A stretch of DNA of 64,000 nt from an uncultured candidate division Zixibacteria bacterium (GTDB taxonomy: Bacteria; Zixibacteria; MSB-5A5; UBA10806), in the NCBI GenBank assembly GCA_963801605.1, contig CAWDFP010000006.1, positions 64,001 to 128,000 of the forward strand. Direction: 5' to 3'. The notes beneath the pieces were generated by a model. The model made no database searches. It saw only the letters and a list, made by a program, of their open reading frames with translations, and had not been told where the DNA came from. Below, in pieces: positions 53,408-64,000 of this stretch. The position numbers and the translations under genes were made by a program. Each line of letters starts with the position of its first letter. The stretch's first letter is position 1.

Positions 53408-53764
53408 ATGCCCGCAAAGAAAAAGGTCGCTAAAAAGAAAACCGCAAAGAAAGTAGTAAAGAAAGCAGCCAAGAAACCAGCTAAGAAAAAAGCAGCCAAG
53501 GGCGGCGGCAGAGGCAAATCGAATCCAGCTTTCATGAAACCGATGCAGCCGGATGCAGCGTTAGCAGCCGTAGTTGGCGATAAGCCGCAACCTCGTACCC
53601 AGATCACCAAGAAGGTATGGGATTATATCAAGGCCAGAGGCCTTCAAGATAAGGTCAACAGGCGAAACATCAATGCCGATGAGAATCTGCTCAAGGTTTT
53701 CGGCGGCAAGAAGCAAGTCAGCATGTTCGAAATGACCAAGCTGGTCAACAAGCACCTGCTCTAA
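53408..53764 (+). CDS. SWIB/MDM2-domain protein with histone-H1-like Lys/Ala N-terminal tail
   Basis: 'FMKPMQP..ALAAVVG..P.PRTQITKKVWDYIK...LQD','VSMFEMTKLVNKHL', SD AAGGAGG. Confidence 0.93.
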   Translation: MPAKKKVAKKKTAKKVVKKAAKKPAKKKAAKGGGRGKSNPAFMKPMQPDAALAAVVGDKPQPRTQITKKVWDYIKARGLQDKVNRRNINADENLLKVFGGKKQVSMFEMTKLVNKHLL

Positions 53765-61952: not shown

Positions 61953-61992
61953 AAGGTCAACTACTATAATAAAATAAGGTTGAAATACCAAT

Positions 61993-62017
61993 AAAAAAAG
62001 TCCGCCTGAGGGCGGAC
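61993..62017 (-). terminator. Rho-independent terminator
   Basis: GTCCGCC-ctca-GGCGGAC stem followed by T7 on the minus strand. Confidence 0.85.
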
Positions 62018-62040
62018 CTTATAACAATATCGGAAGACTC

Positions 62041-62109
62041 TTACTTTTTGCCCTTCTTGGCGGCCTTCTTCGCGGGTTTCTTCTTAGCTGCTTTCTTTTT
62101 GGCTGGCAT
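62041..62109 (-). CDS. 22-aa Lys/Ala-rich histone-H1-like micropeptide MPAKKKAAKKKPAKKAAKKGKK
   Basis: ATG at 62109, TAA at 62043-62041, extended SD AGGAGGTGA (62122-62114), terminator just downstream. Absent from the ORF track. Confidence 0.75.
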   Translation of the reverse strand: MPAKKKAAKKKPAKKAAKKGKK

Positions 62110-62130
62110 AAATTCACCTCCTCTCGCGTC

Positions 62131-62526
62131 TCAACGTTCGACGGTTCTAATCTCCAAGATGTCCTTGGAAAAGTTGATTATAAGCCCCAATTTCATTCGA
62201 TTAGCTTTGAGAATGCTCTTTAGTTTGGATTCATCCATATCAGTAAGATGGTCACCGGTTTGAACCGCAACCACCAAGGCGCCCTCGACTACAAAATCAA
62301 GCCGGTATTCGCCAGCGACCGAACCCTTGTAAGCAAGCTGGATAATCTTATCTCTTTCGAATTCGATATTTTCCAATCCGAATTCGTAGGCTAAGGCATG
62401 GCAATATTCCTCACGACCGAACCCCAGGCCCATATTTTTATGGACTTCGAGTGCAACGTCCATAACGCGGGCTTGAACTTCTCGTTCAACTTGGTTGGGT
62501 TTTGTCGCTAACTTCTGATCTCTCAT
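62131..62526 (-). CDS. GxxExxY-family (PD-(D/E)xK fold) protein, degenerate
   Basis: 'ALEVHKNMGLGF..EEY..AL..E','YKG..VAGEYRLDFVVE','GLIINF'. Confidence 0.8.
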   Translation of the reverse strand: MRDQKLATKPNQVEREVQARVMDVALEVHKNMGLGFGREEYCHALAYEFGLENIEFERDKIIQLAYKGSVAGEYRLDFVVEGALVVAVQTGDHLTDMDESKLKSILKANRMKLGLIINFSKDILEIRTVER

Positions 62527-62550
62527 ACAATTTACCGTAAGTTATTTAGC

Positions 62551-62565
62551 GCAAAATCCGTGCCA
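62551..62565 (-). promoter_or_regulatory. Sigma54 (-24/-12) promoter
   Basis: Minus strand TGGCACGGATTTTGC matches the consensus TGGCACG-N4-TTGC exactly. Confidence 0.85.
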
Positions 62566-62661
62566 ATAATTCAATAATTTTGAAATATCTTATAACTGAG
62601 TGTATTATATGAGGTTATCTATAAGAGTCGAAATCCTGTTATGTTTCAATAAGATATGGTT

Positions 62662-62749
62662 TCGAGACAATGCTGTCGCAATTTTTATATAATAGTTAGC
62701 TAATTTGACCCTCTTCCCTATGAAAACTGCTGCGACCGAAGTGTCTCGA
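62662..62749. promoter_or_regulatory. Candidate enhancer (UAS) pair for a sigma54 activator
   Basis: TCGAGACA-atgct-GTCGCA (62662-62680) and inverted copy TGCGAC-cgaag-TGTCTCGA (62731-62749). Confidence 0.6.
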
Positions 62750-62777
62750 TTTTGAGGAAAAAAATTATAAAATTTGA

Positions 62778-64000
62778 TTATTTTTCTTTGTCAGGCTTAA
62801 TTTCGGCACTCAAATTGTTTCGCTTCAAAATCCGCTGAAGCTGCTTGCGATGCAGGCCTCCCAAACGGGCAGCCTCGGAGATATTGTGGTCACTCCTGTC
62901 CAGTAGATTTCTGGCAAATTCGGTTTCCAGGGGCGATATGACCTCGCGCCAGAGCCGTCGTTTGAGTTCCTCGAGCTCCTTGCCGTTGGCGGGAAGTTCA
63001 GTTTTATCGGAGCCACCGCGACGCTTGATCGAATCAGAAAGTTCATTGGCCGTGAGGGTATCCCCTTTGCAGAGAACCACAGCGCGTTCGATTACATTTT
63101 CAAGTTCGCGTACATTCCCGGGGAACGTATATCCTTTTAGATAGGACATCGCCAGAGCATCGATTCCGATAATATTTTTGCTATTCTTAAGCGAATATTT
63201 TTTTATGAAATGAGATACCAGAAGCTCGATTTCGCCGGTGCGCTCCATCAGCGGCGGAAGCTTGATCGCAATAACATTGATGCGATAGAAAAGATCATCG
63301 CGGAATTCTTCGGTTTCAACCATTTTGGCGAGATCTTTTTTAGTGGCGGAGATAATCCGCACGTCAGCCATCTTCACACCGGTTGATCCCAGCGGTTCAA
63401 ATTCGTGGGACTGTAAAAATCTTAGCAGCTTAACCTGCAATAGCGGCGGGAGTTCGCCGATCTCATCCAAAAAAATCGTGCCGCCGTTGGCTTGTTCAAC
63501 CCGTCCGGGTTTTCGTCCCACGGCGCCGGTGAAAGCGCCTTTTTCGTAACCGAAAAGCTCCGACTCCAACAGCGTTTCCGGGATGGCGGCGCAGTTGATC
63601 GTAACGAAAGGGCTGTCTTTGCGTTTGGAATTAAAATGCAGGGCGCGCGCCAGCAGCTCTTTGCCCGTACCGGATTCACCCTCGATAAGAACCGCGCTAT
63701 CGGATTCGGCAACGTCAGCGACGACCGAGAGGACTCTGGCCATCTCAGGAGAGTTGCCGATGATCTCGTCAAACTTGCATTTGCCGCGCAAATCAACCAT
63801 GAGGCTTTCGCCTTCGGAAATAAGATTCGATGAGTTGAGCGCCGGTTTGAGAGTCTGCCAGATTTGTTCGGATAAAATTTTGAGAAGTTCCATATCGGCT
63901 TTGGTGAAAGCGCTTTTGATTCGGACGGCGTGCAAAAGCCCGGTGACTTCATCTCCCGATTTCAACGGCACGCAAACGGTGCATCCCATCTCGGAGTCGT
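62778..64000 (-). CDS. Sigma54-dependent enhancer-binding protein (GAF-like, AAA+, Fis HTH), 5' end beyond the window
   Basis: 'GESGTGKEL','ESELFG','GAFTGA','FLDEIGE','FRDDLFYR','PGNVRELEN','NISEAARLGG'. Confidence 0.95.
   Translation of the reverse strand, partial: DSEMGCTVCVPLKSGDEVTGLLHAVRIKSAFTKADMELLKILSEQIWQTLKPALNSSNLISEGESLMVDLRGKCKFDEIIGNSPEMARVLSVVADVAESDSAVLIEGESGTGKELLARALHFNSKRKDSPFVTINCAAIPETLLESELFGYEKGAFTGAVGRKPGRVEQANGGTIFLDEIGELPPLLQVKLLRFLQSHEFEPLGSTGVKMADVRIISATKKDLAKMVETEEFRDDLFYRINVIAIKLPPLMERTGEIELLVSHFIKKYSLKNSKNIIGIDALAMSYLKGYTFPGNVRELENVIERAVVLCKGDTLTANELSDSIKRRGGSDKTELPANGKELEELKRRLWREVISPLETEFARNLLDRSDHNISEAARLGGLHRKQLQRILKRNNLSAEIKPDKEK

Follow-up and report, generated by a model that had tools for sequence, protein, structure and literature searches.

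A small gene unit predicted to be under sigma54 control lies at the end of a 64,000-nucleotide (nt) stretch of DNA from an uncultured bacterium of the candidate division Zixibacteria (the window; G000:C6:64001-128000, where G000 is the organism's own assembly). Read on the minus strand, it consists of a GxxExxY-family gene followed by a micro-gene whose open reading frame (ORF) encodes a short, lysine-rich peptide, and it is preceded by the gene of a sigma54 activator. By sequence comparison the unit is real and conserved in a group of uncultured Zixibacteria. Its main product is likely to be a strongly translated, unstructured Lys-repeat peptide that, by analogy with known polycations, would use its charge to bind and condense DNA and probably also RNA. 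The more specific reading, that the unit delivers an inducible polycation resembling H1 tails and Hc2 which would condense nucleic acid, chiefly the nucleoid, is given about even chances.

When the coordinates were re-derived, the elements listed in a preliminary description of this DNA were all found on the minus strand, in the order and at the places given there. The 3' part of the activator gene (62778-64000) has a match to Pfam Sigma54_activat (E 7e-71 for the ORF in the window) and its GAFTGA loop codons at 63522-63539; the gene, of 591 amino acids (aa), begins outside the window at G000:C6:128553. Two palindromes, both predicted upstream activator sites, lie about 70 bp apart at 62732-62747 (distal) and 62664-62679 (proximal), about -182 and -114 from the promoter T. 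They are followed by a -24/-12 sigma54 promoter of the form TGGCAC-N5-TTGC (62551-62565), with a predicted +1 near 62539, and by the GxxExxY-family gene (62131-62526; 131 aa, PD-(D/E)XK fold), which has a weak Shine-Dalgarno (SD) sequence. The SD of the micro-ORF, AGGAGGTGA (62114-62122), pairs over its 9 nt with the 3' end of the organism's own 16S rRNA. The micro-ORF itself (62041-62109) has 22 codons, 12 of them for Lys and none for an acidic residue, and the unit closes with an intrinsic terminator-like hairpin and U7 (61993-62020; -20 kcal/mol, z -3.9 against shuffles).

Two overlapping sets of loci were used to follow the unit in other genomes. In the first, 61 genomes (G000 and 60 relatives) were searched for the 131-aa GxxExxY protein and 27 matched, with 27 strong hits, all at E 6e-27 or lower, and 4 weak ones to paralogues. 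Each of the 27 strong loci combines a sigma54 box with a Lys-rich ORF preceded by an SD; neither was found at any of the three canonical paralogue loci examined. The second set, of 48 loci, was obtained by scanning GTDB as a whole with an alignment of 22 sequences; the titles of these loci name Zixibacteria, uncultured bacterium, uncultured Ignavibacteria and, in one case, Terriglobales. In a quick tree all 48 belong to a single protein clade (Shimodaira-Hasegawa-like approximate likelihood-ratio test, SH-aLRT, 99). The names carried by homologous proteins indicate Zixibacteria. The peptide was present in 46/48 by the filter applied and further downstream in L046, so that an SD-led Lys-rich ORF after the GxxExxY gene, the arrangement expected in relatives if the preliminary description was right, is found in 47/48 orthologous loci. 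In a sample of 201 genomes of the phylum the 131-aa protein was found in 37, belonging to families f1, f2, f3, f6, f8, f11, f12 and f16, and was not found in f4, f5, f7, f9 (0/73), f10, f13-f15 or f17-f19. The peptide-start pattern and strong activator matches follow broadly the same families. Literature searches, which did not cover subscription papers and supplements (small-protein catalogues, for example, may list such peptides), gave no description of this unit.

The micro-ORF behaves as a gene in these comparisons. When codons 2-6 are compared over 47 loci, bases that depart from the majority number 14 at the first codon position, 21 at the second and 89 at the third, and the peptide ranges from 13 to 146 aa across the locus sets by gain or loss of in-frame repeats (45 complete ORFs of 15-146 aa, median 30; 13 aa in L023). 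In 46/46 loci its SD surpasses in strength the best one available to the GxxExxY gene (median -16.9 against -5.3 kcal/mol). A terminator-like site follows the peptide in 45/45 loci, against a mean of 2.4 and a maximum of 5 in shuffled sequences, and no such site was found between the GxxExxY gene and the peptide ORF in these 45 loci. Because variation is biased to the third position, length changes stay in frame, and the SD and the terminator are conserved, the micro-ORF qualifies by sequence as a coding gene, as had been claimed, and is presumably translated. The peptide had been described as a 22-residue one ending the unit; this genome does carry the 22-codon ORF, but there is no fixed 22-mer, the product being a repeat of variable length.

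Over the 45 complete ORFs the peptide consists of 55% K, 17% A, 14% T and 7% R, with one acidic residue in 1623. The window peptide, 22 aa of low complexity, contains no Pfam domain and matches no Pfam or NCBIfam model, and the peptide pattern had 0 matches in viral contigs. None of ten peptides, members of 62-146 aa included, was found in a collection of 15 billion proteins by exact matching, where short or low-complexity sequences may have been filtered out; the neighbouring GxxExxY protein (P0001) is present there. This agrees with the expectation that standard gene calling would miss the peptide. It would also be compatible with an untranslated micro-ORF, either a non-coding repeat or part of a 3' untranslated region, but the codon-position bias, the in-frame repeat changes and the conserved perfect SD, start and stop codons make that scarcely credible.

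The sigma54 box is present in 48/48 orthologous loci. In the 3.06-Mb genome the pattern occurs 37 times, about 0.001 per 150-nt strand window, and of these 37 boxes only the one in this unit has a palindrome 60-230 nt upstream. A G.RAC-N6-GTY.C palindrome occurs at that distance in 48/48 loci, against a shuffled mean of 0.37, a test that is inflated because the pattern was generalised from the same loci. Together with the GAFTGA activator this upholds the sigma54/enhancer architecture first proposed. Between the proximal palindrome and the promoter there is no match to a strict IHF consensus.

The full activator (PF00158, E 1.5e-70) consists of a long N-terminal helical region, a GAF domain (E 4e-12), an AAA+ domain with GAFTGA and a Fis-type helix-turn-helix (HTH). 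By sequence it is a bacterial enhancer-binding protein (bEBP), having the AAA+ domain, Walker A/B and GAFTGA; across 28 activator sequences GESGTGKE, DEIG and GAFTGA are invariant or nearly so and the GAF domain is poorly conserved. Its HTH_8 score (18.9) is under the cut-off of 22, and it falls below every equivalog cut-off. The N-terminus gave no matches at E 1e-8 in G001, G011, G017, G018 and G020, in a search that had no positive control. The activator gene adjoins the unit in 29/48 loci. A GAC-type site goes with a [K/R]Q recognition helix in 17/17 adjacent activators and an AAC-type site with a [V/M/F]E helix in 12/12; the predicted upstream site therefore covaries with the recognition helix (29/29), which ties the activator to the promoter, and this covariation may represent only one or two evolutionary events. 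In family f16 the activator orthologue is unlinked, and where its C-terminus is visible the helix is VE, matching the AAC-type sites there. The enhancer sequence, at these predicted sites, thus changes with the recognition helix of the activator. Two further loci of family f6 were noted: in L074 the stretch between activator and promoter holds a second K/R repeat ORF, of 104 aa, some 780 nt before the GxxExxY-like gene, and in L143 another sigma54 box follows the activator orthologue.

RNA runs X1-X3 were chosen by means of this stretch and were available as assembled contigs only; libraries of this kind may also contain DNA. Contigs of relatives at least about 90% identical, from three studies, bridge both ORFs (62053-62298 and 62041-62244 in X1, 62054-62298 in X2 and 61983-62176 in X3), which is no proof of a single transcript. 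The contig depth on the peptide comes largely from unrelated Lys-codon repeats, and depths were not used as evidence; nor were a contig end at 62540 (depth 2.7, from a single study), next to 62539, where the +1 is predicted, and the lack of RNA-library contigs over vanZ and most of the activator. A search of the unit against Rfam gave a sub-threshold match alone (25 against 47 bits, E 0.41).

The 131-aa partner scores above both family cut-offs (TIGR04256, 90 bits against 35; PF13366 (PDDEXK_3), 82 against 22). Its predicted structure (predicted local distance difference test score 88) has a restriction-endonuclease-like fold, the nearest being that of Cas4 SSO0001 (Foldseek E 1.4e-4; Z 8.2, root-mean-square deviation 2.9, 97 residues aligned). 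The original naming of the gene as GxxExxY stands on the TIGR04256 score, but the namesake motif here reads G-F-G-R-E-E-Y, with E replaced by R, and the ExK position reads A-V-Q (E87>A, K89>Q; D77 kept), so that the residues predicted to be catalytic, which we take to be so from knowledge of the family, are lost. ExK is kept in 0/120 close homologues against 88/103 single-domain representatives of the wider family, and three canonical paralogues (L028-L030) retain it. The partner is predicted to be a pseudo-nuclease without catalytic residues, and the ExK-less clade is, by the same comparison, a conserved candidate pseudo-enzyme. The loss is not uniform: P0154, which groups within the clade, still reads E-I-K, and the E is retained in L023. 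Such exceptions, with D77 (or E) kept in 120/120 close homologues and new conserved acidic residues at 98-99, would suit a nuclease that is still active through a rearranged catalytic site, and whose substrate the peptide shields or presents; against this, E87 gives way in close homologues to residues that are not acidic (M, A, L, S, T and I among those listed), ExK is gone from all 120, and R or K is frequent at residue 38, so that this explanation is highly improbable. No paper testing GxxExxY activity was found in literature searches, and the ESM Atlas returned generic GxxExxY clusters only. As a separate observation, P0123, P0125 and P0126 are tandem two-domain GxxExxY proteins in which the second domain lacks ExK; degenerate copies thus also occur as fusions.

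The partner is under strong purifying selection (median dN/dS, the ratio of non-synonymous to synonymous rates, 0.033 in 41 non-independent pairs) despite the loss of ExK, and its gene comes first in the unit. Both points favour a unit in which the pseudo-nuclease is the regulatory centre, binding either the activator, for which the feedback exerted by PspA or NifL is a model, or the peptide, as an antitoxin or chaperone, the pair forming a stasis switch. This is decidedly unlikely. A role as acidic chaperone was considered and is unsupported by the net charge of the partner core, which is about neutral (median -1). Moreover, three relatives (G014, G019 and G022; 98, 92 and 95% complete) have no match to the GxxExxY protein and no remnant of it in the 190-260-nt gap, and they retain the activator, palindromes, promoter, SD, peptide, terminator and vanZ. 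Since the GxxExxY gene has been lost in these relatives with all else kept, the peptide appears to be the core, common product and the partner an accessory.

With the peptide as the main product, the following sequence of events may be proposed. In keeping with the established working mode of bEBPs, the activator would be bound at the palindromes and would sense a signal through its N-terminal helical/GAF region. It would then open sigma54-RNA polymerase, giving a message of about 550 nt from which, judging by SD strength, far more peptide than GxxExxY protein would be made. A polycation of this composition would neutralise the charge of phosphate backbones and thereby, in a stressed or resting cell, compact the nucleoid or quieten it; the number of repeats would tune its avidity. 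The nuclease-fold partner would be a catalytically dead, low-level accessory, perhaps a nucleic-acid binder or adaptor, dispensable in some lineages.

The same switch could instead supply a peptide whose chief target is RNA or the ribosome, so that in the resting state translation is damped or RNA protected. Polycations do not tell backbones apart, and the shortest peptides would resemble small basic ribosome-bound peptides. Compared with Hc1, Hc2 is the tighter RNA binder and the stronger repressor of translation (PMC2848022). However, a repeat expansion from 13 to 146 aa is ill-suited to a fixed ribosomal pocket and the peptides match no ribosomal family in Pfam or NCBIfam; this explanation is considered unlikely. 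Very unlikely is a third target, polyphosphate or other polyanionic storage condensates, which the peptide would organise in the manner of the KPAA tail of AlgP. The composition is similar, and the AlgP repeat tail is required for even spacing of polyphosphate granules (PMC9239181), but the peptide lacks a granule-targeting domain and there is no polyphosphate gene among the flanking ORFs inspected, no systematic search having been made.

Micro-genes of this type are not confined to the unit. An SD followed by MPAKKK, the pattern of these genes, occurs in at least 120 metagenome stretches; 80 of them (L152-L231) were examined. A dead GxxExxY gene lies upstream in 8 of the 80, each time with a sigma54 box, and 65 of the remaining 72 have short, pure Lys-rich ORFs (41 distinct; GC fraction 0.35-0.73). 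These ORFs come after genes for an extracytoplasmic function (ECF) sigma factor with zf-HC2, a response regulator, HARE-HTH or HTH_17 proteins, or precede HU. At some of these loci two pattern matches stand in tandem.

A number of points weigh against the proposal of an inducible nucleoid condenser, and with them belong the limits given above for the palindrome test and the covariation. Composition cannot separate DNA from RNA or polyphosphate as the target, and at the salt levels of a cell binding by the shortest peptides (13-22 aa) may be weak. BpH1, the analogue in Bordetella, is reported to be dispensable (PMC2848022). In most of the families sampled across the phylum no such unit turned up. 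In L061 the Lys-rich frame is kept and its GTG is two bases out of register relative to relatives, so that by sequence this is a broken gene or an assembly error. Of the examined stretches without a dead GxxExxY gene, 61 extend far enough upstream to be judged, and none of these has a sigma54 box, which suggests that the peptide type is general and its sigma54 packaging lineage-specific. Finally, rpoN was not found in G000, which is 86.9% complete; it was found in 30/30 relatives. As hpf and hprK are likewise not found in G000, and as the assembly holds 12 GAFTGA-type motifs, the absence of rpoN is likely to be an assembly gap. Several AT-rich sigma54 boxes are also present in G000.

An ATP-dependent enhancer protein, paired predicted operators and a perfect SD, all serving a polycation of 13-146 aa, would amount to a tightly gated, high-dose effector. 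If the peptide condenses the nucleoid, it would be a minimal bacterial counterpart of H1 tails and protamines with a defined on-switch; we know of no resting-state program in this uncultured phylum. The unit also marks a blind spot of annotation, given that even members of 62-146 aa are missing from so large a protein collection and that similar micro-genes occur in many other lineages. A wider idea is possible, if doubtful: that free-standing oligolysine micro-proteins are a widespread, unannotated class of inducible protamine-like condensers, to which these Zixibacteria would have added a sigma54 switch and a domesticated dead nuclease as co-factor, making a dormancy-chromatin program.

Some other features of the window and of related genomes may be recorded. 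Downstream of the unit lie vanZ, hisS and aspS, separated from it by the terminator-like hairpin. In comparison with intact relatives hisS (61502-60218, minus strand) is in two frames, with a break near codon 325, possibly an assembly indel, and a membrane gene after phoH (57405-55168, minus strand), presumably of HD type, is in three overlapping frames, again possibly through assembly indels. At 53408-53764 on the plus strand a protein of 118 aa begins with an MPAKKK Lys-rich tail, fused to a SWIB/MDM2 domain (E 4e-28); this gene is covered by RNA-library contigs of relatives in X1 and X2, and a similar protein occurs in G040 (L110). In families f8, f12 and f16 such tails are fused to small CxxC...CC domains and, in L097, to a partial SWIB domain (L079-L084, L090 and L097-L099); L098 matches Desulfoferrod_N. 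G000 contains three other basic micro-ORFs with SD-like sites, C6:376379-376441 (plus strand, 20 aa), C6:1130187-1130104 (minus strand, 27 aa) and C7:175182-175087 (minus strand, 31 aa), the last directly after an HU gene and without a Pfam match.

Among known systems, the closest parallels to the peptide are chlamydial Hc2/HctB (PF07382), BpH1 of Bordetella and the Burkholderia family NF038053, which share with it Lys/Ala/Thr pentamer repeats, length variation by repeat number and the absence of acidic residues. In PMC2848022, Hc2 is described as length-variable Lys pentamers that condense DNA, also bind RNA and repress translation. The peptides of the unit are shorter (median 30 aa against 165-237) and denser in charge (about three basic residues in five against two in five). 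Only 1 of 8 long members matches PF07382 (19.3 against a cut-off of 40), and 2 of 8 match NF038053 (up to 24.9 against a cut-off of 80); the peptide is Hc2- and H1-tail-like by composition and is no member of PF07382, NF038053 or H1. The control also differs: according to PMC7482065 and PMC12282069, hctB is under the alternative sigma28, without a sigma54 promoter, whereas the unit has a predicted sigma54 promoter and a dedicated enhancer protein. With the H1 C-terminal tail and the KPAA tails of AlgP and PhaF the peptide shares a Lys/Ala/Pro(Thr) low-complexity polycation; it is free-standing, lacking the globular winged-helix domain of H1 and the N-terminal domain of AlgP, and contains 55% Lys against a mean of 35% in H1 tails. 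The latter figure, and the finding that charge density drives condensation by H1 tails, are from PMC11331069, and PMC9239181 reports that KPAA peptides bind DNA in vitro. The partner shares with the GxxExxY family (TIGR04256, PF13366) a score above cut-off and the predicted restriction-endonuclease-like fold, but its Zixibacteria clade is ExK-less and has a fixed regulatory context that is absent at the three canonical paralogue loci. The activator, for its part, resembles NifA, FhlA and NorR in its GAF-AAA+-HTH order, its GAFTGA motif and its palindromic sites 90-200 bp upstream of a -24/-12 promoter. It differs from them in its long N-terminal helical region and poorly conserved GAF domain, and in its predicted target, a micro-gene for a polycation in place of a metabolic operon.

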